A model generated the notes under the pieces. It saw nothing but the letters and a program-made list of their open reading frames with translations, was not told the DNA's origin and searched no databases. Below are positions 15,889-50,089 of a DNA stretch of 64,000 bases, piece by piece. Origin of the DNA: Candidatus Omnitrophota bacterium (GTDB lineage: Bacteria; Omnitrophota; Gorgyraeia; Gygaellales; Profunditerraquicolaceae). Both the position numbers and the translations under genes were made by a program. The stretch's first letter is position 1. The number at the start of each line of letters is the position of its first letter. The DNA lies in the NCBI GenBank assembly GCA_041651115.1, contig JBAZJY010000001.1, positions 261,165-325,164 on the forward strand, read 5' to 3'.

Positions 15889-15892
15889 TAAA

Positions 15893-17724: not shown

Positions 17725-17771
17725 ATTTCTTAGAATATTCGAAGGCCAAAGAAGTTAGCCGGGAGGTAAAA

Positions 17772-18476
17772 TTGTTAGATTATCTTATTGAATCTATGAC
17801 TTATCTATCAGTTGATTATAACTGGTTTTTTAGCACCCTCTCTCAGTCTTTAGCAGCATTAATTGGGATAGGCTGCATGTTTATTATTTATCGATTGCAG
17901 ATGCAAGAAAATAATATCAATGAAACAGTACGAGCTTTACAACGTTATTTGTCCCCGATTCACCCGGACAAACTTTTTTATATGACTAGAGAAGAAACAA
18001 CAGCTATGGCTGATGGCGAAATTAATCATCATACGATACAGATAAAGCATTTTAAAGAGGAGATAGCGCAGTCTGAAGAAAAGCTTAAAAGAAGGGAAGG
18101 GAATGAAAGCTTTCTTAACGGAAGAATCCGGTCTTTATCAGAGAATATAAGAGTGGAATCTCTTAAAATCGACAGCCTTCAGAGTAGGAAGTCGGCCATC
18201 ATCCTTAAAGAAAATTATAGAGATGGGATTCAGTTTAGTGCTTTTATTTCCCTTGCATACATGGGTTTTTTATTTTTTGGAAGCTTAATTGCGCTTACGC
18301 ATGGTAACTTTTTCTTGAAACATCAAAAATTAGGGAATGGATTCGTATTAGCCACATTGATTCTTTTGCTCGGCGGTTTATTCTTATCTGGCATCTGTTG
18401 TCTTGTTGGGCTTAATATGGGGAGATCTATGGTAAAAGATATATTTATTAGATTTATTTCCCGCTGGCGGAAATAA
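17772..18476 (+). CDS. Hypothetical membrane protein with a central coiled coil.
   Basis: N- and C-terminal TM helices are present. No family was recognised. Confidence 0.45.
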   Translation: MLDYLIESMTYLSVDYNWFFSTLSQSLAALIGIGCMFIIYRLQMQENNINETVRALQRYLSPIHPDKLFYMTREETTAMADGEINHHTIQIKHFKEEIAQSEEKLKRREGNESFLNGRIRSLSENIRVESLKIDSLQSRKSAIILKENYRDGIQFSAFISLAYMGFLFFGSLIALTHGNFFLKHQKLGNGFVLATLILLLGGLFLSGICCLVGLNMGRSMVKDIFIRFISRWRK

Positions 18477-18790
18477 GATTATGTGCTCTGTCTATCATTT
18501 ATGTATCTGTTTGCCGCGTAGTAATGCCCGGCGCGCCCTGCAGTTGGCAGACCTTTTTAAGTCGTAATTTTAATATCTAAAAATGCGCCTTCCTATATCA
18601 AAAAATCTGATAATTCCCTATTAATCGATATCGGAAAATCCGATAATCTTTCTTTACAGCGATAGAAAAGGCAGGTATAATTAACCGAATTAAGGTCAGT
18701 TTTTGCCGTATGTGAATTTATATGATTCGGGGCGTGGCTCTCCTCGCCAAAAATCGGCGAGGATTTCGCCACTTGACGAACAAAGAATAG

Positions 18791-18868
18791 CGGGGCGTGG
18801 CTCAGTTTGGCTAGAGCGCTTGAATGGGGTTCAAGAGGTCACAGGTTCAAGTCCTGTCGCCCCGACCA
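18791..18868 (+). tRNA. tRNA-Pro(GGG), with CCA encoded.
   Basis: The acceptor stem is cggggcg/cgccccg, the D-stem is gctc/gagc and the anticodon loop is atGGGgt. The 3' end is acca. Confidence 0.8.
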
Positions 18869-21647: not shown

Positions 21648-22285
21648 TGAGTTTAAAAAAAAGAAGGATATTGATAACCGCAGGGCCGACATGGGCCGCT
21701 ATAGATCGTATTCGGGTGATCAGTAACACGGCAACCGGAGAAACCGGTTTTCTGCTGGCAGATAAACTGGCAACACAGGGGTTAAACGTTACTTTGGTAA
21801 TTGGCCCGGCAGGCGGCAGAATCAAAAGCACAAAGTTCAAAGTAATACCTTTTATTTTTTTTAACGAACTTAAAGAAATAATTCTCCGGGAATTGAAAAC
21901 CGGAACATATGGAGTGGTGGTCCATTCCGCGGCAGTCTCCGATTACCTGCCGGAAAAGATTTTTTCGGGCAAAGTAAAATCCGGATTAAAAAATTGGAAG
22001 ATCGCTTTTAAGCCGGCGCCCAAACTGATAGACGCGATAAAGAAAATTTACCCCGGTGTTTTTCTCGTCGGGTTTAAATTTGAGCCGGGCGCAGAAAAGA
22101 GCAAGTTGATCAAAAGCGCGAGAGCCCTTATGCGGCGCTCAAATCTTGACCTGGCAGTTGCCAATACCGCGATCGGCAATAAATACCGGGCTTATGTTTT
22201 ATCCGGAGAAAAAATAAGTTCTCCTTTGGCCAGTAAGAAACATCTGGTAATCAAGCTGGCCGGGGAAATCAAGAAAGCATTATGA
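21647..22285 (+). CDS. coaB: Phosphopantothenate-cysteine ligase (stand-alone CoaB domain).
   Basis: The DFP motif ILITAGPTWAAIDRIRVISNTATGETG is present. At 212 aa the protein lacks the CoaC flavoprotein half. Confidence 0.7.
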   Translation: MSLKKRRILITAGPTWAAIDRIRVISNTATGETGFLLADKLATQGLNVTLVIGPAGGRIKSTKFKVIPFIFFNELKEIILRELKTGTYGVVVHSAAVSDYLPEKIFSGKVKSGLKNWKIAFKPAPKLIDAIKKIYPGVFLVGFKFEPGAEKSKLIKSARALMRRSNLDLAVANTAIGNKYRAYVLSGEKISSPLASKKHLVIKLAGEIKKAL

Positions 22286-23481
22286 AATATATCGTCCTTG
22301 TTGCAGACGGCATGGCGGATTATCCGCTGGAAGAATTGGGAGGCCGCACGCCCCTTGAGGCGGCCAAGACCCCGAATATGGATTTTATTGCTCAGCACGG
22401 CCGCTTGGGCAGAGTAAAGACGATCCCCGATAAAATGGCGCCCGGATCCGATGTCGCCAATATTACGATAATGGGCTATGACACGCGCCAATTTTATACC
22501 GGCCGTGGCCCGCTTGAGGCGGCAAATTTAGGGGTGCAGCTGGAAGAAGGCGATTGCGCTTTTCGTTGTAACCTGATCACGGCAACCGACGATAAGCTTG
22601 TAGATTACAGCGCCGGCCATATTAATTCCAAAGAAGCCGCAATATTGATCAAATATATCAATGAAAAACTGGGCAGCGATAAGGTAAAATTTTATCCCGG
22701 AGTAAGCTACCGGCATTTAATGGTCGTTAAAAAAGGCGCGCAGGAAGGGCTCTCGGACCTAAAGTGCGTGCCGCCTCATGATATCATCGGCCAGAATATC
22801 TCGAATAATTTGCCTAAAGGAAAAGCTGCCGAGTTTCTGATAAAATTGATGCAGGATTCAAGGAAGCTCCTGGAAAGCCATGAAATAAACCAGGTGCGGG
22901 TGGATTTAAAAGAAAATCCCGCGAACATGATCTGGCTATGGGGCCAGGGCGGCAAGCCCAATGTCCCTAGATTCACCGAAAAATACGGCCTGACCGGCAG
23001 CATAATTTCCGCGGTTGACCTGATAAAAGGGCTGGGAAGGATCATCGGTTTGGACGTGATCAATGTTCCCGGAGCAACCGGCTATTATGATACTGATTAC
23101 GAAGGCAAGGCCAATGCCGCGTTAAAATCGCTGGAAACAAAAGATTTTGTGTTTGTGCATGTTGAGGCCCCGGATGAGGCAGGCCACAACGGAGACCTGA
23201 GAGAAAAGATCATGGCGATCGAAAGGTTTGACCACATGATTTTAGGAAAAATTTTAAAGGATTTTAAGAAGAAAAAGAATTTTCGCATCCTGGTTTTGCC
23301 TGACCATGCAACGCCGATTTCCCTGCGTACTCACGTATCTGACCCCGTCTGTTTCGGGATATTCGGCAAAGATATCGTGGGCAGGGGGTTCTTGAAATAC
23401 AGCGAAAAGGAAGCGAGGAACTCCGACCTGTATTTTGAAAACGGCTTTCAGCTGATGGACTATTTTATTAAAGGAGAGTAG
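22282..23481 (+). CDS. apgM: Cofactor-independent phosphoglycerate mutase, archaeal type.
   Basis: The N-terminus MKYIVLVADGMADYPLEELGGRTPLEAAKTPNMD is typical of ApgM. The length of 399 aa fits. Confidence 0.85.
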   Translation: MKYIVLVADGMADYPLEELGGRTPLEAAKTPNMDFIAQHGRLGRVKTIPDKMAPGSDVANITIMGYDTRQFYTGRGPLEAANLGVQLEEGDCAFRCNLITATDDKLVDYSAGHINSKEAAILIKYINEKLGSDKVKFYPGVSYRHLMVVKKGAQEGLSDLKCVPPHDIIGQNISNNLPKGKAAEFLIKLMQDSRKLLESHEINQVRVDLKENPANMIWLWGQGGKPNVPRFTEKYGLTGSIISAVDLIKGLGRIIGLDVINVPGATGYYDTDYEGKANAALKSLETKDFVFVHVEAPDEAGHNGDLREKIMAIERFDHMILGKILKDFKKKKNFRILVLPDHATPISLRTHVSDPVCFGIFGKDIVGRGFLKYSEKEARNSDLYFENGFQLMDYFIKGE

Positions 23482-29901: not shown

Positions 29902-31143
29902 ATGAAAAAGATTTTTCTGGCGCTTAGCGTATGCGCGTTCACATTGCTATCTGGTAATGCCCCCATCGCGTGTTCGGAAACCGGTGATCCTTCAAGGATA
30001 GTTGTTTGCAGTGAAATATTTAATGCGCTGGGCAAAACTGCCGGCGCTTCTAAGGAAGCCGCGGCCATTTTAGCCGGGGCGTTGACGGATAAGGATTTTT
30101 TTATCCGCGCCTCCGCGGCCAAGTCTTTGGGGCTGTTAGGTGATAAAGATTCCGCGTTGATGCTTAAGAAATTGGCCGGAGACGAGAACTACCTTGTGAT
30201 GATCAATGCTACGGCCGCTTTGGTCCACCTTGGCTTATCCGGAGAAGATGCCTTGCTTGATCTGCTTAAAGACAACAGGTCCGAAGTAAGGGGAAACGTC
30301 TTGGGCGTGTTAACTACTTTTAAGGATCAACATCCGGATGTAATACTTGAAATGTTACGCGATGAAAAAAATGATTTTGTGCGCGAGCAGGCTTTGTTGA
30401 GGCTGGGAGAAAATAAATTTATCCAAGCGCAGGAAGTTGTTATTGCGGACACGGAAAACAAGGATCCCGGAGTACGGCAGGCAGCGTGTTTTGCCCTCGG
30501 GCAGATCGGCGGCCCTGAAGCCGGCAAGTTTTTACATAAACGGTTAAGCGATGATGATCCGAGGGTGCGTGCCAGGGCCAAAGAAGCCTTAAGTGTGATT
30601 GGAGACCGCTCAATAATCAGCCTGCTTTGGCAGGACGTAAAAGAAAGAAACGCGTTTTTACGCGGCAGTTCATATGTCGCATTAGCTAATTTAAAAGAAT
30701 TTGACGTTTTGCCGCTTGTCTTAAAGGAAATCATCAGCCCTGATAGCACCTCGCACGCAAGGGCTAAGGCCGCAGAAGCATTGGTGGTCTTGAGGCCGCA
30801 TGTTTCGGAGTTGTCCACCAAAGCGCTCTCCAGCTTGAATATCGGGTCTTTATCTTCGGATAATTTAGAAATTAGCTTTGACTATAAGATCGGCGGGCAA
30901 AGCTTGACAATGACGCTCATTGCCGCGATTAATGATGTTAAAAGCCCGCTGCATCAGGACGCGCCGCTGGTAATTACCATTATGGGGTTAATGGATTGCC
31001 TGCCTGCTTTGCATCAGGCTCTGTTAATGGGTGATCCGGATATGGCAGCATCAGCTGCCTCTGCTTTAGGCGAGATGAAAGATAGCAGCGCTACGGAATA
31101 TCTTATTCAAGCCTGCAAGAAATACGGATGTGGAAAAATTTAA
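29902..31143 (+). CDS. Secreted HEAT/PBS-lyase-like repeat protein.
   Basis: A signal peptide is present ([20 protein letters not shown]). Repeated …R..AA.ALG.LGD… HEAT-like units follow. Confidence 0.6.
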
Positions 31144-36667: not shown

Positions 36668-36695
36668 TTGACTAGGCGCGAAAATATGTTATACT
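36668..36695 (+). promoter_or_regulatory. Candidate promoter upstream of the giant-gene pair.
   Basis: TTGACT and TATACT are separated by 16 nt. The element lies about 190 nt upstream of the ATG at 36886. Confidence 0.3.
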
Positions 36696-36885: not shown

Positions 36886-39800
36886 ATGGCAATTAAATCC
36901 CCGTCCCTGCGCAAGCTCGTATCTCTACTTCTTACCTTCACCTTTCTCTTTACCCAAACCGGCTTTGCCCAGGTAGCAGCTGTTGAGCTTAACATCGGCT
37001 CGCACTTAGGAATCCTTGGCTCAAAGCTTTCTTCACCGGACAAGCTCCGCCTACCGCATTTAAGGTATTTCTCCTACGATAACCAAAATAACAATATCCA
37101 GCTTCTTTTAGATAAGGGAGACTTAAAGGACCTAAAAGACCAAGCCCTAGAGGATTCAGGAAAAGAGCTCCTAAAGTACTTCCTTATAGGCGTAACTCTT
37201 CCTGATGAGCACTTCTGGGTAAACCTTCGGCCTGATTCAGAAGAAAACATCATCCCTGAACTCTTAGCCAAGACTGATATCGGTAAAATCTTTCTTGAAG
37301 CAGATGTCCAGCTTAAAAAAGATACCGCAAGCCTAACCTCACCTAACAGCCCCCAGGGAAAGCTTTACTGGGACAAGCTCTATAAAAAAGCAGCCCAAAT
37401 CTACGGCACCCAGAATGTCACTATCCCCACCTTAACCCGTCCTTGGATTGTGCCAAATGAGATCATTATTCGCGAGTCAAAGGAAAGCGCTTACATCTAC
37501 AAGGCTACATTAAAGGTAATGTTAGAGCAGGACCACCTTAAAGGCTCGGTTAACTATAACTTTGAAGACTCCCGCGCCAAAGAACTCAATGAATATTCAT
37601 CAGAGCTTATTAGAGAACTCATCCTTCCTGAATTAACCAAGGAAGTAAACAATGCCAAACGCTATTCCCAGCTAAGACAGGTCTACTACTCTTTAATACT
37701 CGCACGCTGGTTTAAGGCCAGGTTCTACGGTAAAGGAGGCCTTTATGCTTCCTACATTAATAAAGCTAACCTAGAAGGCTTAACTTCTAACCAAAGCTGG
37801 TCAAAAGACACTTATTTTAAAGCTTACCAGTCTTCCTTTAAAGACGGCGAATATAATCTCCAGGCTACAGTAAACACCATCTCCGGCCCATCAATTAGAA
37901 GCTACTTCTCAGGCGGCATGGAATTCGGCCCTAATATGAACATTGTTACTCAAAACAGAAGCTCTGTCCCCATGATTGCCGGCTTCCAGGGTAAACTCTC
38001 AAGCCCCATGCTGATAAACGTAGGCATGAATAATGGCATGTCTTTACTTGTTGGCGCACCTACCATCAAGAATCCGATAATGCTGATGCAGGGAGTGGGG
38101 TCAAGCCCGGTTGATGAGGAGCCTAAGATTCCGAATATTAATCCTGAAGATGGGCGTATACCGGATCCTGAACCGACAGAAAACGAAAACCCTGGCGATG
38201 AGCCGGAAATTAATTATAACGATCATTCCTATGATGATCAGGAGGCGCCGGAGAAAGATGAAGAAGTTGGCTCCAGCCCGCTGACTACAGAAGAAATAAA
38301 GAACAATGCCAAGGCTGCTTTGGAGAAGTTAGTTAAGGATAATAAAGATTCGCAATTAATAAGAGAAGTTTCCGGCATTGTATTGAATGATAGGGCTAGA
38401 AACATAACTAGCCGTATATTTAAGAAGATTTCTCCCAATACGGCAAGCTCCTACGACAAAAAAATGAAAATCCTGCATCTACTCGAAACAGTTAGGCGTA
38501 GTCCAGTCCATAGTGATCTTAAAGCAGGCTGCGCGGAGGCCGCGTATTATATTAAGGAAAGAGATGATCTTGAATTTCTTAAGTGGAGAGGAAACACGGA
38601 AGTTTTTGGACCAGAACACAGGATAATCGCCAAGATGGCGGTTTTGTTTAAGACAAGAAAAGACGATGAAAGAAGTAAAATAGCACAAGAGATTATTGAT
38701 TTAGATAATAGTACGCACTATGAATCTTATCAGGTTGATTCCATGGCAAAATTTAAGACTTTATTCTATTCTGTCCAATATCTCTTTTCCGAAGACTTTG
38801 CCGCCGCCTCCAGTCCATTCAAAGTCGAACCTGTCAGTTCGTTAAAGGTATATTCTGATATTAACCAGCGCATTTGGCTTGACGGCCTGACTTTTGAGAT
38901 GCTGCTTTCAGGCGAGTTTGAAAAACTGGTGCGTGAGCATGGCATAAACGGCGTTACTACCAATCCCTCGCTCATTAAGGCTTATTTTAGCGACCAGCGG
39001 GTGATCGATAAGGCAAGGAAATTAGCTTCCGAAGGATTGGGCAAAAAAGAAATCTATTACCAGCTTGTCAGTGAACTGGCTAGAACTGCGCTGGAGATAT
39101 TCAAGAAAGCCGGTGTAGCCAATGCCAAATTCAGTGTTGAGTTGGATCCTACTGTCAATAATAGCAGCGTAGAAGAAGCTGTTGTGGAAGCAATGCAGTG
39201 GACTGACATTGATCCTGCGCACATGATGGTCAAGGTTGCCCTGACTTCCGACGCAAACGGCGTTGATACGGAAACCGGATATAAAATAATCGAAGAGGTA
39301 ATATCCCGCGGCCGCAATGTTAATGTAACGCTGATTTTCACTCCTGAACACTACAAAAAAGTCGTTCAGGCGTATATCAACGGCCTTAAGCGCGCGCTTC
39401 TTAATGTAAAGGCAGGCAAATTAAGCAAGGAAGAATTTAACCGGATTTATTCCGTTGCCAGCTTTTTTATCTCCCGTTGGGATGTTTATTTTGAGGAAAA
39501 TAAGCTTCTTGCTGATGGTGTGCATGGTAAAGCTGCTAATTCCATTGCGATCGAAGCCTATAATGAGATATTTAAATTCTTTTTCAGCGATGAAAATCCT
39601 GAATGGAAGCAGTTAAAAGATGATGCCGCGTCCATCGGCTGTGAAGTCAGGCCCCAGGAGTTCCTGCTTGCTTCCACCGGTTCTAAAGGCCCTGATATGC
39701 TTAAAAAAGGCGTCATTGATGAAAAAACCGCAGCCGAATATCCTGCCGGGATTTATGTGCATCCTTTGCAGGGCAGTTACGTCGTAAATACCCTTCCTTA

Positions 39801-42800
39801 TGGGACCATAAAACATCTGATTGAAAAGGGCGTGGCTAAGAATGAAGACGGCAGCATTGCGCAAACTATCGAATCCGGATATATCGCAAGTCAGGATGTG
39901 ATGGATTGGCTCAGAGACGCTTCCAGCATAACCGATGTAGGCGCCATACTGCTTAAGAACGCCACAACCGCCTTCCTGAAAGACTTTGCCGATATTCAGA
40001 ATACGCTTGAAGGGCTTGTCTCTGGAAAAACTTCCTCCCCGGTAAATGAACTACAGCGCGCAGACGTTAACCGGATGGTTGATGATTTATTGGGGATGTA
40101 TAAAGCAAAAGACGAGGTAGTAAGGATAGAGAAGCTGGAAGGGATTATCCGGCCTGCGGCCAAAGCCATAGAGGAATATCTTTATGGGCAGTTCGCCGAC
40201 CAGAAAATCGCCGCAAACATCTATGAGAAAGGTATGAAAAATATCATACCGAATCTTGCAAAATGGTATACCGATCCGTATATACAGGAATCTACGGTTT
40301 TAGGCATAGAAGATGCAGTAAAAGAAGGTTATTGGAAATTCATTGCCCAGGCTTATATGGCAAAAATAGCTTATGGCACTGCCGGCGTGCGCGGTAAATT
40401 TGCGTTCGGTAAATATTTCCAGCTGGTAGCTGAAGCAGCTAAGCAAGGAAAAGGCTTAAGGGTGCCTAATCTAAAAGGGCCGAATACCTTTAATGATGAA
40501 ATAGTCCGGCAGTTTACATTAGGAGTTTTAAAATTCCTGGAGAATCAGAATTCCGACCTGCCGAAATCAGGCCTGAAATTATTCACCGCTTATGACAGTA
40601 GAGTTGCAGGAAAAGAATTTGCCCAGATAATCAGGGATATTGGCCTGGCTTATGGGGTACAGGTTTATATTTCCGATGAAGCAATGCCTCTTCCGGAATT
40701 TTCCAACTCTTTAAAAGAGCTATCCGGAGGTAAGGCTGCGATCGGTATTTATATTTCCGCCAGCCACAATGTCAAGCCGGATAACGGCGTGAAATTGATC
40801 GGTGCAGACGGTATGCAATTAGGCGCTAATGACGTCCTGCGCAAGGCGGTAATGAAGGAATTTGACAGCGCAACGCTTAAAGAAGTAGCCGAGTTGCTTA
40901 AAAATTTACCTTCTGAAATACCGGCCGAACAGTTAACATTCATAGGCGGCAAAGAAGAAGAGAAGCTGCCGGGAGTTGAGTATGGAGATCATAAACTTAT
41001 TGATACCCATACCATGCATTTTAATGCCGTGCTTAAGCATGTTAAGGACCAGGAAGCAGTTAAGAAGTATGCTAAAGATATAAATATCCTTTATTGCGCT
41101 TTTCACGGCGCAGGCAGAAGGGCTGCTCCTCGCGTATTGGGCGCGTTGGGATTCAATGTGGAAAAAATAGAGAAGATGGATGCCCTGGACGGCACATTGC
41201 CTGAATTTGCAGATGCCGAGCCGCCGGATCCGGCGCTGGTTGCTTCTTGGAAAAAGGCGCTGCAGGCATATTTAAGTGAACACCGCAGGGAAGACCTGCT
41301 TAAGAAAGACCTTTTTAGCTCCAATGATCCTGACGCAGACAGGTATGGTGGAGTGATCAGGGTAAGTGCTGCAGAGATCCCTGAAGATGAGGCAGTTGCC
41401 GAAGCCATGGGCATAGCTTTCAAGCTTACCGAAGAGGAACAGGCAAAATATGGTTACGGTGGTTTTCGCGTGCTTCCGCCTAATGAATGGAATGCGCTGA
41501 TCGCTTTTTATGACCTGAAACGGTTAAAAGATCAGGGCAAACTTGACCCCAATAAGCATGTTTTAGTTTTTTCACATGTAACTTCGTACTTGATGAAAAA
41601 GATAGCTGATTATTTTGGTATAGCAGTAGTTATTAAGCCGGTAGGCGTGGATCAACTGGCTGATGAGATCGTAAAGCTGGAGAAGCAAGGCAAGATAGCT
41701 GTGAATGGAGCGGAAGAGAGCGGCACATATATGACCAGCGACCACATCCGCGACAAAGACGGCTTCCTGGCAGGCGTGCGCCTGGCAGAGATAGCCTGCG
41801 CTGCCCGCGCACAGGGCAAAACAATCAATGATCTCTTAAACGAGATATATCTTATCCCAGAGATCGGATTTTTCGCGACTACTAACTTCCCCATAGAATA
41901 CGAAGTCTCTGTTCCGGGGACTGCCGCGAAAATGGCTGCGGTAAAATTCCTGCAGAAAGACGTGAAGCCTTTGGTAGAAGAAAGAATACGCAAAGGAGAC
42001 AACCCGGTAATCGCAGGGTATAAGATACATGATGTAGACGAACAGACAGAATTCAGGTCTGGTAAATACGACGAGCCGCTTGAGTATCAGGGATATCCGG
42101 ATGCGGGTATCAGGTTCTACTTTAATCCGGAAAAAACAGGTTTTATCACTGACCGGCCGTCAGGAACCGGCCCTCAGCTGCGTTTCTACGCGCACCTGTT
42201 TTATCTTACGGAAGGGCTTGACCTGGCCGGGCTTAACACTTTGAAGAAAAACGCCTATGCCGAATGCCTAAAGGTGACGAAAGAATGGATGCGAATTACC
42301 CAGAGCAACGACATTAAGGCGCTTGTCAGTTCTCCGGTTGTCAATTCCAGGCAAATAGCAAAGGTACTTTCTGAAATGAAGAAGAATTCCGGATTGCCGA
42401 TATCAATCGCGCCGTCATTAACCGCTACTACCTGGAGTGGAGCTTTGCACGCGATTAATTTTTCCCGGCCTGTTTTTCGCAGGGTAGAACGGGAATCGCT
42501 GAATGAAGAAAGATTTACCGGAAAAACGGCTTTTACAAGCGCCGCGAGCGATACTGATGTAAAAGGCCTGACTACTTATGACGTCATAGCCGGTGAATTC
42601 AAGAGCGTGCGTACAGGTGAACAGGTGAGGGGCTTTATCACTGACCAAACTGCAGCGCTGCCCGAATATACCTATTTTATGCACCGCGGTATATTTGCTT
42701 CCCGTGAAGATATACAAAAAGCTTTTTATGACAACAAGATCCGTTTTGACATCACCGTTATTCCTCCGGGGATCTGGGGCATAGATTATGCTAAAACAGT

Positions 42801-44262
42801 GGGTCATTATCATAAGCCTATAGAGATGCCGGAGATCTATCAGGTAGTCAGTGGTGATGTGCTTTGGTTGATGCAAAAACTTGATAAAAACGGAAACGTG
42901 GAAGACTTTGTTACTGTTAGGGCCAAGGCAGGGGATATTGCGATCATGCTTCCCGGTTACGGCCATGTGAGCGTAAATCTTTCAGAAACTGCGCCGTTAG
43001 TCTTGGCGAACTGGTTGACTTGGAATCAAAGCTCTGAGTATGGATCGTTTAAAGATAAGGGCGGAGCTGCTTATTATGTGGTTAAAAATGGCGATGGCCA
43101 GCCGGAATTAAGGCCGAATCCCAAATATGTTGTAGCGCAGGGAACGCTTCCAGAACCGCGCCAGATGGTTGCTAAGGACGGCATTGAAGTATTTGGATTG
43201 AAGAGGGGCGAGCCAATTTATAATCTGGTAAAATTAGACGCGGAAGATTTTGCCAATAAGATTGATCACTTGAATAATCCAGCCAATTATGATAAAGAGC
43301 TGACTGTTGAGGCGACTTTAGATAAAGCTAACCCAGGGGATCGGATTACCTCCAGCTCACCGGTGAAAGACATCAAGTTTGAAGGTAAGAATGCCTTTAT
43401 ATCCGGAGAAGACATTGCTGCTTTAAAAGAAGGCAGGAAACATATTGAAGTAGGCATAAATGGCCAGCAGCTCATTACCATCACGGGCATTGCTTCATTG
43501 AAGCCGCAGGTTATTGCCGCGCAAACTGCTGATTATGAGATCCGGCAGAGGGCTACCACTGATAGCCACGAAGCAGTCCTGTTTAATTTTAAGAAAAAAC
43601 AGGGCGACGACGGAAATTACCATGCCGTCAAGGTGGCGTATCAGGCAATACAGGGCGGGCAGCTGGTTATTTCTTTCTGGGAATTAGGCAGGAATAACCA
43701 GTATTACGGACGTATTGTCAGCGCCTCCAGCCCGGTAAGAAAAAGTAAAGATGAGCTAGAAGAGTATGAAGTATCCAAGGGACGGACAGATGATGACGCT
43801 GGGTCTGAAATAGAGCCGGAAGAAGTGACGGATGACGCAGACCTATATCCTAATATGCCTGGCGAGGATAAGGATTCGGATGAAGATTCCTCTAGTCCTT
43901 TAGACAAAAAAGGCGGTATTGACTTCCGCTCGCTGCCTCTAACCATCCAGCCAGCAGGAAGCTTTAAGGAGCTGACGTTTTCACTGCCTCCTGCTAAACA
44001 GCTCGCCAGCATCAATATCTCAAAGGAATTAGTTGAGATCAAGAATATGGTTGATAAAGGAATCGCTCCTTCAGGTGAGAGAGTAAAGGACCTGGTTGCA
44101 GCCTGTTATCAGAAGAATGAGCTGGCCAGTCATCAGGAAGAGCTGATCTCATGTCTTATGCGCATATGTAAGCTTCAGGAAGACCTAGTCCTTCCGGTTG
44201 ATAATAGCCTAAAAGAAGCAATTGTAATTGTTGATTCACTAAATATAGCGTATGCACATTAA
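36886..44262 (+). CDS. Giant modular protein 1 (2458 aa). It comprises a signal peptide and a shared N-domain, a transaldolase-like module, an alpha-D-phosphohexomutase module, a cupin-type phosphoglucose isomerase module and a shared C-terminal domain.
   Basis: The RBS is aaggagag. The N-terminal signal peptide reads LLLTFTFLFTQTGFAQVAA. The TAL module carries GVTTNPSLI, MVKVALTS, NVNVTLIF and ASTGSK. The PGM module carries YGTAGVRG, ISASHNVKPDNG, DPDADR, GAEESGT and RPSGTGPQLRFY. The cPGI cupin module carries TVGHYHKPIEMPE and PGYGHVSVN. The modules are separated by SSP[VL] motifs. Confidence 0.8.
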   Translation: MAIKSPSLRKLVSLLLTFTFLFTQTGFAQVAAVELNIGSHLGILGSKLSSPDKLRLPHLRYFSYDNQNNNIQLLLDKGDLKDLKDQALEDSGKELLKYFLIGVTLPDEHFWVNLRPDSEENIIPELLAKTDIGKIFLEADVQLKKDTASLTSPNSPQGKLYWDKLYKKAAQIYGTQNVTIPTLTRPWIVPNEIIIRESKESAYIYKATLKVMLEQDHLKGSVNYNFEDSRAKELNEYSSELIRELILPELTKEVNNAKRYSQLRQVYYSLILARWFKARFYGKGGLYASYINKANLEGLTSNQSWSKDTYFKAYQSSFKDGEYNLQATVNTISGPSIRSYFSGGMEFGPNMNIVTQNRSSVPMIAGFQGKLSSPMLINVGMNNGMSLLVGAPTIKNPIMLMQGVGSSPVDEEPKIPNINPEDGRIPDPEPTENENPGDEPEINYNDHSYDDQEAPEKDEEVGSSPLTTEEIKNNAKAALEKLVKDNKDSQLIREVSGIVLNDRARNITSRIFKKISPNTASSYDKKMKILHLLETVRRSPVHSDLKAGCAEAAYYIKERDDLEFLKWRGNTEVFGPEHRIIAKMAVLFKTRKDDERSKIAQEIIDLDNSTHYESYQVDSMAKFKTLFYSVQYLFSEDFAAASSPFKVEPVSSLKVYSDINQRIWLDGLTFEMLLSGEFEKLVREHGINGVTTNPSLIKAYFSDQRVIDKARKLASEGLGKKEIYYQLVSELARTALEIFKKAGVANAKFSVELDPTVNNSSVEEAVVEAMQWTDIDPAHMMVKVALTSDANGVDTETGYKIIEEVISRGRNVNVTLIFTPEHYKKVVQAYINGLKRALLNVKAGKLSKEEFNRIYSVASFFISRWDVYFEENKLLADGVHGKAANSIAIEAYNEIFKFFFSDENPEWKQLKDDAASIGCEVRPQEFLLASTGSKGPDMLKKGVIDEKTAAEYPAGIYVHPLQGSYVVNTLPYGTIKHLIEKGVAKNEDGSIAQTIESGYIASQDVMDWLRDASSITDVGAILLKNATTAFLKDFADIQNTLEGLVSGKTSSPVNELQRADVNRMVDDLLGMYKAKDEVVRIEKLEGIIRPAAKAIEEYLYGQFADQKIAANIYEKGMKNIIPNLAKWYTDPYIQESTVLGIEDAVKEGYWKFIAQAYMAKIAYGTAGVRGKFAFGKYFQLVAEAAKQGKGLRVPNLKGPNTFNDEIVRQFTLGVLKFLENQNSDLPKSGLKLFTAYDSRVAGKEFAQIIRDIGLAYGVQVYISDEAMPLPEFSNSLKELSGGKAAIGIYISASHNVKPDNGVKLIGADGMQLGANDVLRKAVMKEFDSATLKEVAELLKNLPSEIPAEQLTFIGGKEEEKLPGVEYGDHKLIDTHTMHFNAVLKHVKDQEAVKKYAKDINILYCAFHGAGRRAAPRVLGALGFNVEKIEKMDALDGTLPEFADAEPPDPALVASWKKALQAYLSEHRREDLLKKDLFSSNDPDADRYGGVIRVSAAEIPEDEAVAEAMGIAFKLTEEEQAKYGYGGFRVLPPNEWNALIAFYDLKRLKDQGKLDPNKHVLVFSHVTSYLMKKIADYFGIAVVIKPVGVDQLADEIVKLEKQGKIAVNGAEESGTYMTSDHIRDKDGFLAGVRLAEIACAARAQGKTINDLLNEIYLIPEIGFFATTNFPIEYEVSVPGTAAKMAAVKFLQKDVKPLVEERIRKGDNPVIAGYKIHDVDEQTEFRSGKYDEPLEYQGYPDAGIRFYFNPEKTGFITDRPSGTGPQLRFYAHLFYLTEGLDLAGLNTLKKNAYAECLKVTKEWMRITQSNDIKALVSSPVVNSRQIAKVLSEMKKNSGLPISIAPSLTATTWSGALHAINFSRPVFRRVERESLNEERFTGKTAFTSAASDTDVKGLTTYDVIAGEFKSVRTGEQVRGFITDQTAALPEYTYFMHRGIFASREDIQKAFYDNKIRFDITVIPPGIWGIDYAKTVGHYHKPIEMPEIYQVVSGDVLWLMQKLDKNGNVEDFVTVRAKAGDIAIMLPGYGHVSVNLSETAPLVLANWLTWNQSSEYGSFKDKGGAAYYVVKNGDGQPELRPNPKYVVAQGTLPEPRQMVAKDGIEVFGLKRGEPIYNLVKLDAEDFANKIDHLNNPANYDKELTVEATLDKANPGDRITSSSPVKDIKFEGKNAFISGEDIAALKEGRKHIEVGINGQQLITITGIASLKPQVIAAQTADYEIRQRATTDSHEAVLFNFKKKQGDDGNYHAVKVAYQAIQGGQLVISFWELGRNNQYYGRIVSASSPVRKSKDELEEYEVSKGRTDDDAGSEIEPEEVTDDADLYPNMPGEDKDSDEDSSSPLDKKGGIDFRSLPLTIQPAGSFKELTFSLPPAKQLASINISKELVEIKNMVDKGIAPSGERVKDLVAACYQKNELASHQEELISCLMRICKLQEDLVLPVDNSLKEAIVIVDSLNIAYAH
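36928..38112 (+). repeat. 1.2-kb direct repeat, copy 1 (5' coding region of giant gene 1).
   Basis: This tract is near-identical to 44321-45505. About 900 nt are perfectly identical, then mismatches become increasingly frequent, with no indels. Confidence 0.85.
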
Positions 44263-47200
44263 TCCTCAAAAAAGGGGACGTTTCCGGGAAACGTCCCCTT
44301 TTTCAAGATTTATTTCCCTGCTTCTTACCTTCACCTTTCTCTTTACCCAAACCGGCTTTGCCCAGGTAGCAGCTGTTGAGCTTAACATCGGCTCGCACTT
44401 AGGAATCCTTGGCTCAAAGCTTTCTTCACCGGACAAGCTCCGCCTACCGCATTTAAGGTATTTCTCCTACGATAACCAAAATAACAATATCCAGCTTCTT
44501 TTAGATAAGGGAGACTTAAAGGACCTAAAAGACCAAGCCCTAGAGGATTCAGGAAAAGAGCTCCTAAAGTACTTCCTTATAGGCGTAACTCTTCCTGATG
44601 AGCACTTCTGGGTAAACCTTCGGCCTGATTCAGAAGAAAACATCATCCCTGAACTCTTAGCCAAGACTGATATCGGTAAAATCTTTCTTGAAGCAGATGT
44701 CCAGCTTAAAAAAGATACCGCAAGCCTAACCTCACCTAACAGCCCCCAGGGAAAGCTTTACTGGGACAAGCTCTATAAAAAAGCAGCCCAAATCTACGGC
44801 ACCCAGAATGTCACTATCCCCACCTTAACCCGTCCTTGGATTGTGCCAAATGAGATCATTATTCGCGAGTCAAAGGAAAGCGCTTACATCTACAAGGCTA
44901 CATTAAAGGTAATGTTAGAGCAGGACCACCTTAAAGGCTCGGTTAACTATAACTTTGAAGACTCCCGCGCCAAAGAACTCAATGAATATTCATCAGAGCT
45001 TATTAGAGAACTCATCCTTCCTGAATTAACCAAGGAAGTAAACAATGCCAAACGCTATTCCCAGCTAAGACAGGTCTACTACTCTTTAATACTCGCACGC
45101 TGGTTTAAGGCCAGGTTCTACGGTAAAGGAGGCCTTTATGCTTCCTACATTAATAAAGCTAACCTAGAAGGCTTAACTTCTAACCAAAGCTGGTCAAAAG
45201 ACACTTATTTTAAAGCTTACCAGTCTTCTTTTAAAGACGGCGAATATAATCTCCAGGCTACAGTAAACACCATCTCCGGCCCATCAATTAGAAGCTATTT
45301 CTCAGGCGGCATGGAATTCGGCCCTAATATGAACATCGTTACTCAAAACAGAAGCTCTATCCCCATGATTGCCGGCTTCCAAGGCAAGCTCTCAAGTCCT
45401 ATGCTGATGAAGATTGGCAATGAGAACGGCATGGTGAGCCTTATGGGCGCGCCGACGATTAAGAATCCGATAATGCTGATGCAGGGAGTGGGGTCAAGCC
45501 CGGTAAAAGAGATTGATCTTGAAAATGGCAGCTTCCCGATTATGTTTGACAATGGCAACATAATAATTGAAAGAAACAATGAAAATAATTTTACCCGGGT
45601 AAAGCTTCAAAATAAAAAAGGCGATATTTTTATGTTTTCTCTAGAGGATAAGATTTATTTCTTACCTGACGAGAAGATCGTTTCGGTAAAAGATGATGAA
45701 CCGGTATTTGATGTTCAGGTGCGGCTTAATGTTGAGATCAACGGCCGCGCAGTAAAGAGTATTAATTTTGATCGGGATATTACAAGGCCATACGAGCTTA
45801 GTATAAGTAACGATGAAGCCGGTAAAAAATTAACCGTGGCGTTAGACTCCAGGGTTTATGAACAGCTATTCAATACTGACGAGACTAAGAGGTTCCTTAT
45901 AAGCGAAGCAACAGCCACCAAAGGCGGGTATAAGCTGATCATAAAGGAAATGAACTCTAGCCCGGTTACGGTAGATTCGGGAAAAATATCCCGGGTGCTT
46001 GATGATGAACTTGTAAAAAACCTGTTAACTTGGCAGGGAAGAAACGGTAATCCTGCTATATGGTATATTGGCATTGAAGATTACAGTGAGACGCATCCCT
46101 TTACAGTTTCTGAAGCAGCCAGGAACAAGGTTAAGTTAGTAGATTATGCCTATAAGACGGTAGTGGATGCGGCCGAGCGATATCAACTTAATCCCCAGGA
46201 GAAAGTTAATTTGATCAACATTCTGGCTAAGCAGCTCAATTTTGCAGGAGCGGAAATCCAGGATAATCACGCAATCGTTTCCAAATACGATTATTATGAC
46301 CGTCTAAGGAATATAGCCGCTCAGGTAGATTCCAATGAACTAAAAACCTGGCTTCTGAACTCTGCTCTTCAGAACTCCGATCTGTCAAGAGGGGTTAATT
46401 ACTTTTCCGCGGCCGTAGATAATTTTGAGGACGATGTAGCGTGGGCCGGCAGTTATTTTAACCTTTACAGTAAAATCCCCAACAGCAAAGCATTTAAATA
46501 TACGCTGGCCATGCTATTGCTTAGTAAAAATCCGGCGCATCATGATGGCGCGATGTGGATCATAAATGAGAAACTCGGTGGTTACGATATCGGGAATCAA
46601 GATGGAGCGTGGCAGTTCTATAGGGAAGCAGTAATAGATGCATTGGGGAAAAAAGACGGGGACATAGCTGCTGAATATGCCGATCTTTTTGTAAAAAACG
46701 CGGCGAGAAAAATTGGTATATTAGCCGTCTCCAGTCCGCTGGCAAAAGATAGTAAGGAAGTTTTACAGAAAATTATGCAAAGCACCGATCCTCTCTGGAG
46801 CTATCCGTTGGATGCCTTAGAGTACCACTTAAAAAATAATCCCTCGCTTCTGCCTGTAGAAGATTATGCGCAGAATGCTAAAGGCGTAGAGGACTTCGTC
46901 GTTACGTTGGCAAAGAAAGCCAGAGAGTTACGCGATAAAGACAGCGTAGAAGGCCCGGCTTTAGGCGGCAGCTATCCCTATTATGGCATAATCTTTAACG
47001 TAGTGAGGTTGAGCTTAGATAAAATAGAAGTTTCCTCCGGATACAAGAAAGCAATACTTAATCTGTTTTCTGATATAGCCGGCTATGAAGACGTTAAAGA
47101 TAGTATCGGCGAAAATCTATCAGAGATGCTCAAGGCTTTAATTATAAAAGGCATTCTTAGTTCCGGAGAGATTATTGAGATCGCGCAAATGTTTTCGTTG

Positions 47201-50089
47201 ACCCCGAATACCCCCGAAGAGTATTCTGCGGGAATGATTGAAATAGCTATCCAGCATAAGCGTATTAACGCAGATGCTTATCTTGATTATGCCTTGCCGC
47301 TTATTGTAGGGGCAATAGAGAGAAGCCAGTTACCCGAATTCCATTTTAGTATTCTTGAGCCTAGGCATGTTTTAGAGATTGCCAAAGCCATTTGGCAAAA
47401 TGAACGGTTAAGCCTTAATGACAAAGGGTATCCGGATGCGCAGGAAGTGGATGAGTTTATTAAACAGGCAGATGAAAATATCTCCGCGATGCGCAAGAAT
47501 AAAGCATTATTTGACGGGCTATATCAGGACATACAAGCCGCAAAGCTTAAGTCACAAACCGAAACCGGCCTTGAAAGCTCTCCGATTAATGTTAGCGGTT
47601 TTGGAATACCGGAAGCAGCGGGAAATCGTATCAAAGCCGTAGCCGTACCGTCTGACAAAATCAACCATGACTTTTATACCCAGCTGAACAAAAAAGGCTA
47701 TGCCGTGGTTTTTTCCGATACGGAAGAGAATTTCGGCGCTTTTCTGCAGTCATTTGGCAAATATCAGATTCTTATCGGCAATGATAACCCCTTATTCATT
47801 AAACAAATGAGCGGGATGGGGGTAGTTTTAGAAGGCGATAAAGAAGAAAATAGCCGGAGGATAACGGATGCTTTAAAAAAATTCAATCCTCTGCCGCTGG
47901 AGGTAAAAAGATACGCAGGGCAGTTAGCAGATACCCTTGTGGGATCCGAACTGCGCGGTTATATTGACGGTTTGGATAAAGCCCTCTTGCGCGAGAAACT
48001 TATTCAGTTGTTTTCAAGCGAAAGGCCTATGGAGAGATTTGAGCGGGTAGTAGAATATAGGGATGCCGCTTATAAAGTAGAGATACACTGGAAAGATATC
48101 CTCTTGGGAGATTATGTCATATCTTTTAGGGTAAGCAATGCGAATGACAACAGCACGGTCAGCCTGATCTCTGTCCATTCATTTGACAGGAATGCTCCTG
48201 TCAACCGGACATTCCGGCTATTAGACCAGGCTAATGGTTTTGCTCCGCTGGCCTCCAGCCCGGTCAACGTAGGGGAAAAGGTAGCGGAATTCAAGCGGCT
48301 TATTCCTAGTGTAGAAAATTCGCAGATCAAGGTGATTGTAATGCCGTATACTGAGAATAGTTTTCTGCCTGCTTATTTTATGCTGGCGCTCATGTATAAG
48401 ATACCCGAAGGGTCATATTTAAATGATGCGTACAAAGAGGGCAAGGCTTACCGTTTTTATACTACCGGCGTAGATAAGGTTAGAGAACATACCGCAGCCA
48501 TGCTTTTGGGTAAGGCCAATGAGCTTGGCCCGCAGAACTGCCTGTTTATCAGCGCTGATCCGCAGAAGATAGAAGAAGCCCTTAAGTATGGCTGGAAGAC
48601 TGTATTATTGGGCAAAAACGCAGAAGACAATGCCCTGGCAGTAGCGGATATTTTAAATGGTAATGGGGCTATTGTCAGCTCGCCGGTGCAGGGGGAATTA
48701 GGCCAATTATTAATCAGGGACCTGTTGGGTTTAGATGAAACCCCGTCACCGGAAACAGCGCTTAAGTTATTACAGGAGAAGCTCGCATTCTATCAGAAAA
48801 AAGGCTTGTTTTATCGGTCAGGCGAATTTTATGTCCTTGAGGGATACATGGACGATGGGACAGCTTATAATGACTGGGTTGAAAATCCGATCCAGGCTTT
48901 GGTTCTAGCTATGCGTTTCAATAAGGAAAAGTATAAATTGGATCCGGCGACTAAGAAACTTTTGTTGGAGCAAATAGAGGGTTACCGGGAGGGTAAGTAT
49001 TATGTTTTTGAGGGAGGCGGTTTCTCTTTTTCCGTGGAAGATCCCGTAGAAGCTTATGGTATGGCCTTAGAGGATCAAGGATTAGGCAGCGGTATCGGAC
49101 AAAGCTCGCCGTTAGAGGGAGCACGCACGGTTAATGAACTGGGTGAGGCATTGGATGCATATATTGACAGCGGCTATTTTTTTGCTGACGGCTGGAACGA
49201 GCTTTTAAGCTACAGGGATAAGGCGGTCATCAGACGCTTGGGAGAACTGCTTAAAGCTAATGATGCCATGGTCACGGTAATAAGACAATTCATCAAGTCG
49301 CAGTCCAATACGCTTATTCCTTTCGGGATGGATTCGGATAAAGTGTATGAATATATGGAGAATGGGATATTTTCTTTTACGGAGGTCAGCTCTCCGGTGC
49401 AGGCGATAGATGTAATAATACATCCTGCCGAGGGTATAGATGATAAAATTATAAGAATATTAGAATCTCCCAAAACAAAAGAGTTGGTCATGCAAGTAGC
49501 TAAAGAGGCCGTTAATAAGGTAGTTGGTGCTGGTTTCTTGGGAGAGATTGACGGTCAAAAGTTAACCTATCGTTTTCAGGTAGAAAGAGACAAGGATAAC
49601 GTACCTGTAGATATTTCCTTTGACATACGCAATCTTCCTCTTACCCTAGATACTTTTGAACTCCCTAAGTATGATGTCTATGGCCATGCTGAAATAATCC
49701 TTGAAAGGCAATCCCAAAGCTCACCTGTAAATACCGAAGACGCTCATAAGAAAGGCGGTATCGACTTCCGCTCGCTGCCTCTAACCATCCAGCCTGTAGG
49801 AAGCTTTAAGGAATTGCAGTTTTCACTTCCCCCGGCTGAATCTTTAGCTCAAATCAACATCTCAAAGGAATTGGTTGAGATTAAGAGCATGGTAGATAAA
49901 GGAATCGTTCCTTCAGGTGAGAGAGTCAAGGACTTAGTTGCTGCCTGCTACCACAAACAGGAACTATCCAGCCATCAGGAAGAGCTGATGTCTTGCCTGA
50001 TGCGCATCTGCAAGCTTGAAGAAGATATGGTTATGCCTGCTAACGCCAGCCTTAAAGAAGCGATCGTGATTGTGGATAGTATAAAGTAA
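44252..50089 (+). CDS. Giant modular protein 2 (1945 aa). It shares the N-domain and C-terminal domain with protein 1, but its core consists of eight different modules of unknown function.
   Basis: The ATG at 44252 overlaps the end of gene 1 (ATGCACATTAA). Translation would read through the terminator hairpin before entering the shared signal-peptide region. The core modules are again delimited by SSP[VLI] motifs. Confidence 0.7.
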   Translation: MHINPQKRGRFRETSPFSRFISLLLTFTFLFTQTGFAQVAAVELNIGSHLGILGSKLSSPDKLRLPHLRYFSYDNQNNNIQLLLDKGDLKDLKDQALEDSGKELLKYFLIGVTLPDEHFWVNLRPDSEENIIPELLAKTDIGKIFLEADVQLKKDTASLTSPNSPQGKLYWDKLYKKAAQIYGTQNVTIPTLTRPWIVPNEIIIRESKESAYIYKATLKVMLEQDHLKGSVNYNFEDSRAKELNEYSSELIRELILPELTKEVNNAKRYSQLRQVYYSLILARWFKARFYGKGGLYASYINKANLEGLTSNQSWSKDTYFKAYQSSFKDGEYNLQATVNTISGPSIRSYFSGGMEFGPNMNIVTQNRSSIPMIAGFQGKLSSPMLMKIGNENGMVSLMGAPTIKNPIMLMQGVGSSPVKEIDLENGSFPIMFDNGNIIIERNNENNFTRVKLQNKKGDIFMFSLEDKIYFLPDEKIVSVKDDEPVFDVQVRLNVEINGRAVKSINFDRDITRPYELSISNDEAGKKLTVALDSRVYEQLFNTDETKRFLISEATATKGGYKLIIKEMNSSPVTVDSGKISRVLDDELVKNLLTWQGRNGNPAIWYIGIEDYSETHPFTVSEAARNKVKLVDYAYKTVVDAAERYQLNPQEKVNLINILAKQLNFAGAEIQDNHAIVSKYDYYDRLRNIAAQVDSNELKTWLLNSALQNSDLSRGVNYFSAAVDNFEDDVAWAGSYFNLYSKIPNSKAFKYTLAMLLLSKNPAHHDGAMWIINEKLGGYDIGNQDGAWQFYREAVIDALGKKDGDIAAEYADLFVKNAARKIGILAVSSPLAKDSKEVLQKIMQSTDPLWSYPLDALEYHLKNNPSLLPVEDYAQNAKGVEDFVVTLAKKARELRDKDSVEGPALGGSYPYYGIIFNVVRLSLDKIEVSSGYKKAILNLFSDIAGYEDVKDSIGENLSEMLKALIIKGILSSGEIIEIAQMFSLTPNTPEEYSAGMIEIAIQHKRINADAYLDYALPLIVGAIERSQLPEFHFSILEPRHVLEIAKAIWQNERLSLNDKGYPDAQEVDEFIKQADENISAMRKNKALFDGLYQDIQAAKLKSQTETGLESSPINVSGFGIPEAAGNRIKAVAVPSDKINHDFYTQLNKKGYAVVFSDTEENFGAFLQSFGKYQILIGNDNPLFIKQMSGMGVVLEGDKEENSRRITDALKKFNPLPLEVKRYAGQLADTLVGSELRGYIDGLDKALLREKLIQLFSSERPMERFERVVEYRDAAYKVEIHWKDILLGDYVISFRVSNANDNSTVSLISVHSFDRNAPVNRTFRLLDQANGFAPLASSPVNVGEKVAEFKRLIPSVENSQIKVIVMPYTENSFLPAYFMLALMYKIPEGSYLNDAYKEGKAYRFYTTGVDKVREHTAAMLLGKANELGPQNCLFISADPQKIEEALKYGWKTVLLGKNAEDNALAVADILNGNGAIVSSPVQGELGQLLIRDLLGLDETPSPETALKLLQEKLAFYQKKGLFYRSGEFYVLEGYMDDGTAYNDWVENPIQALVLAMRFNKEKYKLDPATKKLLLEQIEGYREGKYYVFEGGGFSFSVEDPVEAYGMALEDQGLGSGIGQSSPLEGARTVNELGEALDAYIDSGYFFADGWNELLSYRDKAVIRRLGELLKANDAMVTVIRQFIKSQSNTLIPFGMDSDKVYEYMENGIFSFTEVSSPVQAIDVIIHPAEGIDDKIIRILESPKTKELVMQVAKEAVNKVVGAGFLGEIDGQKLTYRFQVERDKDNVPVDISFDIRNLPLTLDTFELPKYDVYGHAEIILERQSQSSPVNTEDAHKKGGIDFRSLPLTIQPVGSFKELQFSLPPAESLAQINISKELVEIKSMVDKGIVPSGERVKDLVAACYHKQELSSHQEELMSCLMRICKLEEDMVMPANASLKEAIVIVDSIK
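44274..44303 (+). terminator. Rho-independent terminator/attenuator between the giant genes, lying inside the 5' coding region of gene 2.
   Basis: A perfect 11-bp stem ggggacgtttcc-ggg-aaacgtcccc is followed by ttttt. Confidence 0.6.
44321..45505 (+). repeat. 1.2-kb direct repeat, copy 2 (5' coding region of giant gene 2).
   Basis: It matches copy 1 at a constant offset of 7393 nt. Confidence 0.85.

Follow-up and report, generated by a model that had tools for sequence, protein, structure and literature searches.

Why should a bacterium have two adjacent genes whose very large products begin and end nearly alike and share nothing in between? The question is raised by a 64-kb stretch of DNA (the window, to whose positions all window coordinates below refer) from a Candidatus Omnitrophota metagenome-assembled genome (MAG), part of a 647-kb contig. 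In it two co-directional open reading frames (ORFs), ORF1 at 36886-44262 (2458 aa) and ORF2 at 44252-50089 (1945 aa), follow one another on the forward strand, as do the features of the pair given below. The tandem arrangement claimed in an initial annotation of the DNA is borne out by the ORF list and its translations, and in GenBank the products are the adjoining entries MFA5156062.1, 'transaldolase family protein' (ORF1), and MFA5156063.1, 'hypothetical protein' (ORF2). The sequences show them to be paralogues in an Omnitrophota-specific family of modular carriers, for which no published name was found, with a constant head, a constant tail and, between these, modules bordered by a short recurrent junction motif.

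The two proteins align in BLASTP at their termini and nowhere else. Their heads are identical at 378 of 399 positions (95%), the first 12 residues of ORF1 and the first 21 of ORF2 being different, and their tails at 97 of 125 (78%), with DNA identities of 97.4% over 1192 nt for the heads and 82% over 279 nt for the tails. The common signal peptide and N-terminal domain, the related C-terminal domain and the mutually unrelated cores of the initial annotation all hold good. Its core size of '1.1-1.6 kb' does not, the real cores being ~1,900 aa (5.7 kb) and ~1,400 aa (4.2 kb). Its remark that neither terminal domain was recognisable as a named family agrees with profile searches of head and tail against Pfam and NCBIfam, which gave no match for either.

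The head of ORF1 (aa 28-371, 36967-37998; folded part ~55-345) carries the invariant motifs FWVNLRPD, RPWIVP and YFSGG, which are present in both ORFs, and that of ORF2 (aa 37-380), placed by alignment to ORF1, lies together with its signal peptide (aa 1-36) at 44252-45391. It is a highly conserved domain of ~300 aa, and the model of ORF1 aa 1-410 (mean pLDDT 79) predicts a fold without a solved relative, there being no match among PDB sequence profiles and no relative among solved structures. Its invariant residues include N113, R115, D117, E138, D140, K144, D146, R185, E214, D216, R264, Q265, E322 and R338. The tail of ORF1 (aa 2336-2458, 43891-44259) starts at an SSPL and continues with an extended peptide, KKGGIDFRSLPLTIQPAGSF..LPP, which in general form is GGIDFRxLP...QPxGSF, and then four helices. 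These are modelled as a small bundle (pLDDT 82 for the ~115-aa tail), and the structures nearest to it are helical binders of a generic kind and HEAT/ARM-like repeats. Alignment and the tail profile place the ORF2 counterpart at aa 1823-1945 (49718-50086). A pentatricopeptide repeat (PPR) identity for the tail was considered on account of a weak, repeat-summed PDB-profile match to designed PPR proteins (E 7e-7, aa ~2380-2415) and was rejected, Pfam not confirming it. The head ends in YFSGG[M/I][D/E][F/L] (YFSGGMEF at aa 340-347 of ORF1) and this resembles the GGIDF that opens the tail (KKGGIDF, ORF1 aa 2344-2349), so that similar motifs stand on either side of the cargo; in some relatives GG[IVL]D[FL] is present at both places.

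How general is this pairing of ends? A head search gave 323 homologues, the named ones all from Omnitrophota, with E values down to 1e-139, and a scan of one genome per species gave 419 head-encoding stretches, among the best 80 of which are several MAGs with 3-5 head copies each. Family members were then surveyed at 78 Omnitrophota loci, each with 10 kb of downstream flank (loci are numbered L, and proteins P, where they have to be told apart). The complete head-bearing ORFs at these loci run from ~600 to >3,600 aa and nearly all carry a GG[IVL]D[FLM] tail 110-135 aa before the stop. The tail profile, run against 1.84 billion representative proteins, matched 1042 clusters, all at the extreme C-terminus and with ORF1 and ORF2 as its top two matches, and of 99 tail proteins that are 600 aa or longer 73 have a head, the remainder looking N-terminally truncated. 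Entries that seem to have a head only or a tail only are, as judged from their sequences, fragments or frameshifts. The head-only entry L044 / P0017, for instance, is a frameshifted gene for head, pyruvate phosphate dikinase (PPDK) and tail. At that locus a head ORF (9998-11050) overlaps an out-of-frame stretch (11004-15323) coding for PPDK, junctions of the SSA type described below and a tail; the frameshift could be a sequencing error or genuine. The smallest members, ~540-640 aa, are head, short spacer and tail. At six loci (L010, L014, L024, L031, L037 and L073) the head-bearing ORFs are still open after ~3,680 aa, where the flank ends, and these may be much longer and a link to the giant Omnitrophota proteins considered later.

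The junction motif sets the cores apart from ordinary sequence. ORF1 contains 10 copies of the tripeptide SSP and ORF2 11, as against a single one in the window's other 39 ORFs, which total 15,061 aa. The first in each protein, an SSPD within the head, is lineage-specific and probably not a true junction site; in all the others of the two proteins the next residue is V, L, I, M or F. The segments so cut out span 34-765 aa, and no junction site falls within the Pfam-defined enzyme domains of ORF1. Family sequence totalling 292,593 aa contains 482 SSP where 64 were expected, and the logo of 420 instances reads [S/A/V/G/T]-S-S-P-[V 33%, I 21%, L 15%], with its information confined to positions -1 to +3 and its flanks uninformative. 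Some lineages use GSP[VIL], ASP or SSA[VIL] instead. At ten loci of the SSP-using clade the family ORFs (21,576 aa) have 66 motifs and the neighbouring ORFs (24,335 aa) none, and not one of 111 core motifs in 31 proteins lies inside an enzyme block, although such blocks make up 29% of core length and 32.6 would have been expected there. Blocks of homology between members have their ends at the motifs, which delimit units reshuffled in evolution. Since the serine and proline codons vary among sites, selection has been on the peptide and not on the DNA or RNA, and a DNA-level cassette or recombination signal at the module borders is ruled out by the same site-to-site differences in the Ser/Ser/Pro codons. 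The motif strings retrieved nothing relevant from the full-text literature, as far as its incomplete coverage extends.

Between its ends ORF1 has nine junction-delimited segments. The head is followed by one of 34 aa (37999-38100; SSPM...SSPV), semi-conserved in relatives and predicted to be disordered. Next come an acidic proline-rich spacer with junction motifs on both sides (aa 406-462, 38101-38271) and a module to which Pfam assigns no function and whose limits are those of its motifs (aa 463-641, 38272-38808). The middle of the core comprises what are, by sequence, three complete enzymes with intact catalytic motifs. A transaldolase (aa 642-1049, 38809-40032) matches PF00923 with E 1e-34 and 120 bits against a gathering cut-off of 27, and has TTNPS, SVELD and the Schiff-base lysine motif MVKV. 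A phosphoglucomutase/phosphomannomutase (PGM/PMM; aa 1050-1814, 40033-42327) matches PF02878/79/80 at 69/32/49 bits against 22.5/29.3/20.7, with SASHN, DPDADR, GAEESG and RPSGTGP. A cupin-type glucose-6-phosphate isomerase (PGI; aa 1815-2156, 42328-43353) matches PF06560 with E 2.5e-29 and 102 bits against 20.7, and retains the metal ligands of GHYH...E and GYGH. A second module without assigned function, delimited in the same way (aa 2157-2280, 43354-43725), and an acidic spacer again bracketed by motifs (aa 2281-2335, 43726-43890) lead to the tail. ORF2 likewise has nine junction-delimited segments, none with a detectable family: a post-head segment and eight cargo modules at 45392-49717, the motifs starting at nt 45392, 45494, 45956, 46730, 47576, 48254, 48677, 49103, 49388 and, for the tail, 49718. 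Searches of Pfam, NCBIfam and PDB sequences gave nothing for the eight modules.

Modules of both proteins recur in relatives. The transaldolase is also present in L001, L002, P0126 and L036, and the ORF1 block 640-1053 corresponds to 548-962 of L001 (motifs at 550 and 959) and 1276-1706 of L036 (motifs at 1261 and 1701). In P0133, P0178 and P0163 the PGI module is found again, placed elsewhere in the chain, and the ORF2 modules at aa 1335-1475 and 569-694 reappear in L003 and L001, respectively. The initial annotation had likened the layout to a cassette system, different modules being mounted between an export head and a tail that are both constant, and had named docking or sorting as one possible role of the tail. 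The junction motif, the enzymes in the ORF1 core and the spread of the family through the phylum had escaped it. The survey supports the constant ends and exchangeable modules, in that the ends are paired and the modules recur at other positions. It is not, however, a mobile cassette system, because the genes occupy stable housekeeping positions: the pair and its orthologues lie between groEL and guaB/guaA, and other members adjoin gyrB/gyrA or rsmI, paralogues thus being in differing but conserved contexts.

A Pfam census of cargo in 27 and 33 full-length members suggests that it is dominated by sugar-phosphate and central-carbon enzymes. It includes phosphoglycerate kinase (PGK, in 9 of 27), glyceraldehyde-3-phosphate dehydrogenase (GAPDH), triosephosphate isomerase (TIM), cofactor-independent phosphoglycerate mutase (iPGM), enolase, transaldolase, cupin-type PGI and PGM, together with archaeal-type fructose-bisphosphate (FBP) aldolase/phosphatase, a GatZ-like aldolase, PPDK and GH94, and also guanylate kinase, HD, DnaJ, HEAT and TPR domains. 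Much of lower glycolysis is found on some chains: the order in L034 (3600 aa) is head-GAPDH-GAPDH-PGK-TIM-enolase-tail and that of the cargo in L023 is GAPDH-TIM-PGK. L032 (956 aa) consists of head, PGK and tail only, its PGK starting ~4 residues past the motif with RVDFNV and GGGDTA intact. J domains with an intact HPD are present inside signal-peptide-bearing members (L035 aa ~430-500, L043 aa ~1000-1070). When a fused PGK module served as query, fused fragments ranked first, followed by the PGKs of other phyla, and no named stand-alone Omnitrophota PGK was among the top 120 matches. The carrier format does not extend to every glycolytic enzyme of the genome, since a stand-alone apgM-type cofactor-independent phosphoglycerate mutase, with neither head nor tail, is encoded at 22282-23481.

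Where would such proteins go? The N-terminus of ORF1 (aa 1-27, 36886-36966) has a basic n-region, a 12-residue hydrophobic core and a cleavage-type end, TGFA before Q, which falls after residue 27 in ORF1 and after residue 36 in ORF2. For 233 distinct family N-termini the medians are 12 residues (range 8-14) for the uncharged run and +3 for the net charge of the n-region, and 207 of the 233 have xF[A/S/T][Q/S] near residue 25. By these features it is predicted to be a classical cleavable Sec signal peptide rather than a membrane anchor. No further hydrophobic segment is present in ORF1 or ORF2, the 19-residue hydropathy maximum of 1.38 being at the signal peptide only. With a Sec-type signal and no other such segment the whole chain would, by standard rules, be translocated, and export across the cytoplasmic membrane is rather probable. 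The window also has, at 29902-31143, a gene whose 413-aa product combines a signal peptide with HEAT repeats, which are likewise frequent in head-tail cargo and in giant Omnitrophota proteins. At the window's start (15-1523), 35 kb upstream of the pair, a type II/III secretion secretin with an STN domain is encoded.

The reading tentatively preferred here, at slightly less than even chances, is that of Sec-exported modular enzyme carriers whose junctions are serine-protease sites. The precursor would be exported via Sec and its signal peptide removed, with head and tail as constant handles for post-export assembly, anchoring or hand-over. An elastase- or subtilisin-like serine protease would then cut the junctions after the aliphatic residue and so release stoichiometric enzyme sets that are free to oligomerise. 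ORF1 would be expressed from its own promoter-like site and ribosome-binding site and ORF2, at a lower level, by read-through, with gene conversion keeping the heads identical. That the junctions are cleaved is, taken by itself, close to an even bet. It is suggested by the motif being short, nearly invariant and absent from domain interiors, by its flanking disordered spacers on both sides and by its co-variation with lineage. The type of protease is suggested by the likeness of S-S-P-V to AAPV, AAPF and AAPL, classic substrates of elastase- and subtilisin-type serine proteases. Several observations pull the other way. The small-Ser-Pro/Ala context also resembles PglL-type O-glycosylation sites; some borders in relatives are without the motif, as in the GAPDH-GAPDH-PGK part of L034; and no protease gene, nor any partner or transporter gene, was found conserved beside family members in the window or at relatives' loci. 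Most awkwardly, much of the cargo (PGK, PPDK, guanylate kinase, GAPDH, the HPD-intact J domains) needs ATP, ADP, NAD or Hsp70. Such cargo should be useless in a conventional periplasm and speaks against a simple periplasmic function, a contradiction also noted in published accounts of giant Omnitrophota proteins (bioRxiv 10.1101/2023.11.21.568195; bioRxiv 10.64898/2026.06.07.730766). The incompletely covered literature yielded nothing relevant on exported glycolytic enzymes in Omnitrophota.

May the chain instead remain whole, a multi-enzyme of beads on a string in which the motif is a hinge, a helix N-cap or a modification sequon, such as one for O-glycosylation, that protects exported linkers? 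The linkers are indeed very short, modules abutting the motif within ~5-10 residues, and acidic or polar residues often come next after it, in the manner of S-P-x-x-E capping boxes. The variants SSA and GSP suit Ser-Ala/Pro-rich glycosylation contexts, and an uncut chain would have no need of the protease partner that failed to turn up. A mere hinge, however, needs no five nearly invariant residues across unrelated modules, and the motif flanks even the disordered acidic spacers, on both sides. Obligate oligomers such as GAPDH, TIM and enolase would presumably be sterically constrained if tied at both ends, and the motif is not a general sequon since the window's other signal-peptide proteins are without it. 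On balance an uncut chain seems somewhat unlikely.

The requirements of the cargo lead to two further proposals. One leaves the enzymes in the cytoplasm, the N-terminal segment being a membrane or assembly tether and head and tail organisers of a membrane-associated glycolytic metabolon. ATP-, NAD- and Hsp70-dependent cargo with intact motifs (PGK, PPDK, GAPDH, guanylate kinase, HPD J domains) would be at home there, and the lack of a named stand-alone Omnitrophota PGK among the top 120 matches hints, if weakly, that the fused copy may be the working one. Yet the N-terminus is fully Sec-like, with a basic n-region and a median run of 12 residues that is too short to span a membrane, no stop-transfer segment follows the head, the positive-inside rule would have the bulk translocated, and the genome has at least one ordinary stand-alone glycolytic enzyme in apgM. 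A cytoplasmic location is accordingly considered unlikely. The other proposal directs the proteins at prey or host, like polymorphic toxins, with head and tail as delivery modules and the payload acting inside the attacked cell, whose cytoplasm offers ATP, NAD and Hsp70. Epibiotic predators do occur among Omnitrophota (PMC10066038, PMC12583861), and the proposal would account for constant ends with variable cores and for an export signal on cargo that wants a cytoplasm-like milieu. It is hard to reconcile with payloads that are conserved housekeeping enzymes rather than toxins, with guaB and no immunity-like gene directly downstream, with the stable syntenic housekeeping positions of the genes and with unconserved junction codons, hence no DNA-level signal for swapping cassettes, and it is thought very doubtful. 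The boldest extension of carriers that are exported and cut is that much of sugar-phosphate metabolism (PGI, PGM, transaldolase, FBP aldolase/phosphatase, TIM, GAPDH, PGK, iPGM, enolase, PPDK) takes place outside the classical cytoplasm by means of polyproteins addressed by head and tail and cut at S-S-P-V. The place could be a periplasm-derived compartment, a host contact zone or the host cytoplasm, and the odds on this extension are decidedly long.

The two genes are differently equipped for expression. Upstream of ORF1 is a promoter-like site, TTGACT-16-TATACT with a TG (36668-36695), which is a consensus match only, and an AAGGAG Shine-Dalgarno sequence is 8 nt ahead of its ATG (36886). 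Just past the ORF1 stop, and within codons 6-19 of ORF2, a terminator-like hairpin at 44269-44308 has a perfect 16-bp stem and a 3-nt loop followed by five T (dG -25.6 kcal/mol, z -5.9). ORF2 starts at an ATG that overlaps the stop of ORF1 and has no Shine-Dalgarno sequence. Because of the hairpin, the overlapping start and the lack of a Shine-Dalgarno sequence, ORF2 is probably expressed at a lower level than ORF1, via read-through and translational coupling. No riboswitch or other RNA family was found in the region. A 908-nt direct repeat, 100% identical (36928-37835 and 44321-45228), covers most of both heads, which are 99% identical over 332 aligned aa. The heads of two other tandem pairs are 86% and 63% identical and those of orthologues elsewhere ~72-78%, a comparison that indicates recent gene conversion between the two heads of the window, to which the mere 82% DNA identity of the tails also points.

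Might the pair itself be an artefact of assembly, either a duplication or a chimera formed through the head repeat? A perfect repeat of 908 nt exceeds short-read length, no independent contig was found to span the junction (by look-ups of the exact products or by scanning metagenome contigs for exact 40-mers), and the orthologous locus L002 has a single ORF1-like gene between GroEL and guaB. That locus makes ORF2, in all likelihood, a lineage-specific addition built of modules seen elsewhere. Against an artefact, the stretch leading from the ORF1 tail across the hairpin into the N-terminus peculiar to ORF2 is unique and lies outside the repeat, both ORFs are intact over their 2458 and 1945 codons, the cores are unrelated and there is 18% divergence between the tails, and tandem family pairs are also present in L023 and L028. 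A partner swap across the repeat would put the ORF1 core on a closed loop, and the tandem would then be the sole linear path through the 0.9-kb repeat that uses both cores. An artefact is held to be highly improbable.

Elsewhere in the window, at ~14000-18500, GC content falls to 0.36-0.37 from ~0.47. Five of the six ORFs of at least 150 aa there have no Pfam match, and the sixth (17272-17724) encodes a bacterial PH domain. Since this stretch ends at a tRNA-Pro gene (18791-18868), it may be an integrated island. At 9603-10298 and 10335-11066, between tRNA-Thr/tRNA-Tyr and tRNA-Gly genes, two tandem genes encode small paralogues whose signal peptides are nearly identical and which have no Pfam match.

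Several known systems invite comparison. Of the secreted ones, the RgpA and Kgp gingipains of Porphyromonas gingivalis have a signal peptide, several domains and a C-terminal domain for the type IX secretion system (T9SS), and are cleaved at short recurrent sites. The likeness lies in a signal peptide, a constant N-terminal region, several functional domains and a constant domain at the extreme C-terminus, but the T9SS domain is a beta-sandwich of ~80 aa whereas the tail here is helical, and the cargo here is metabolic rather than proteases or adhesins. No T9SS, PEP-CTERM, LPXTG or GlyGly-CTERM signature is present in the pair, and the tail model is all-helical with no C-terminal hydrophobic segment. 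In viral polyproteins, too, a short junction peptide that hardly varies separates autonomous modules, but their protease is usually encoded within the chain and here no cognate protease was found among the neighbouring genes. A small-small-Pro-aliphatic sequence presents optimal P4-P1 residues to S1 and S8 proteases, cleavage at the junctions here being only predicted. Constant handles, exchangeable modules and a short border motif are shared with cellulosome scaffoldins and with the polymorphic toxins CdiA-CT/VENN and Rhs. Pfam has no dockerin (PF00404) or cohesin match in the pair, and, unlike the toxins, the pair has a constant C-terminus, with constant parts at both ends, metabolic cargo and guaB rather than an immunity gene next to it.

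As for routing metabolic enzymes, the glycosomes of kinetoplastids are non-cytosolic compartments to which terminal signals target glycolytic enzymes, but PTS1 and PTS2 are short peptides on separate enzymes and no such compartment is known in Omnitrophota. Glycolytic fusions are not without precedent, Thermotoga having a natural PGK-TIM fusion. A stramenopile TPI-GAPDH fusion (PMC3527533) is reported to carry, in addition, an N-terminal signal to another compartment. These too put consecutive pathway enzymes on one polypeptide, but they are two-enzyme fusions without a constant head, tail or junction motif, whereas here five or more enzymes can share one chain (L034).

The nearest relatives in concept are within the phylum. 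Very long Omnitrophota proteins with a predicted signal peptide, among them the Archaeovorins and a 'multi-enzyme metabolic cluster', have been described as tiled with glycolytic/gluconeogenic, PGM/PMM, PPDK, HEAT and TPR domains, at 10,000-147,000 aa, with many transmembrane helices and with C39/S8 peptidase and SecA-like domains (bioRxiv 10.1101/2023.11.21.568195; bioRxiv 10.64898/2026.06.07.730766). Both preprints suspect post-translational cleavage of the giants and one calls the cleavage points unknown; neither could tell if and at which sites it happens, nor by what means such enzymes might function beyond the cytoplasm. Phylum, predicted signal peptide, tiled sugar enzymes and the puzzle of sugar-phosphate enzymes outside the cytoplasm are common ground. 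ORF1 and ORF2, however, have only 2458 and 1945 aa, no transmembrane segment beyond the signal peptide and no C39, S8 or SecA-like domains, Pfam giving TAL, PGM I-III and GPI only for ORF1 and nothing for ORF2. Neither preprint mentions the head, the tail or the junction motif, and Seymour et al. make no mention of fusions of glycolytic enzymes. What is new here relative to the giant-protein reports is the head, the tail, the junction motif and the phylum-wide family, undescribed in the sense of not being found in the searchable literature.

The locus offers a small and tractable version of the giant-protein problem, in proteins of ~2,000 aa with clean borders and a five-residue motif, and the motif makes the question of processing directly searchable in metaproteomes and assayable in vitro. 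With a family of about a thousand clusters, the head is a handle by which such carriers can be found in any genome. Should the motif be a linker and no more, and the proteins ordinary periplasmic or membrane-associated scaffolds, they would still make up a new large family with a novel fold. If the extracytoplasmic scheme were true, bacteria would have their own equivalent of glycosome targeting, joined to a processing of polyproteins like that of viruses. In any event the list of cargo raises the possibility that central carbon metabolism is unusually organised in space in these ultra-small, host-dependent bacteria.

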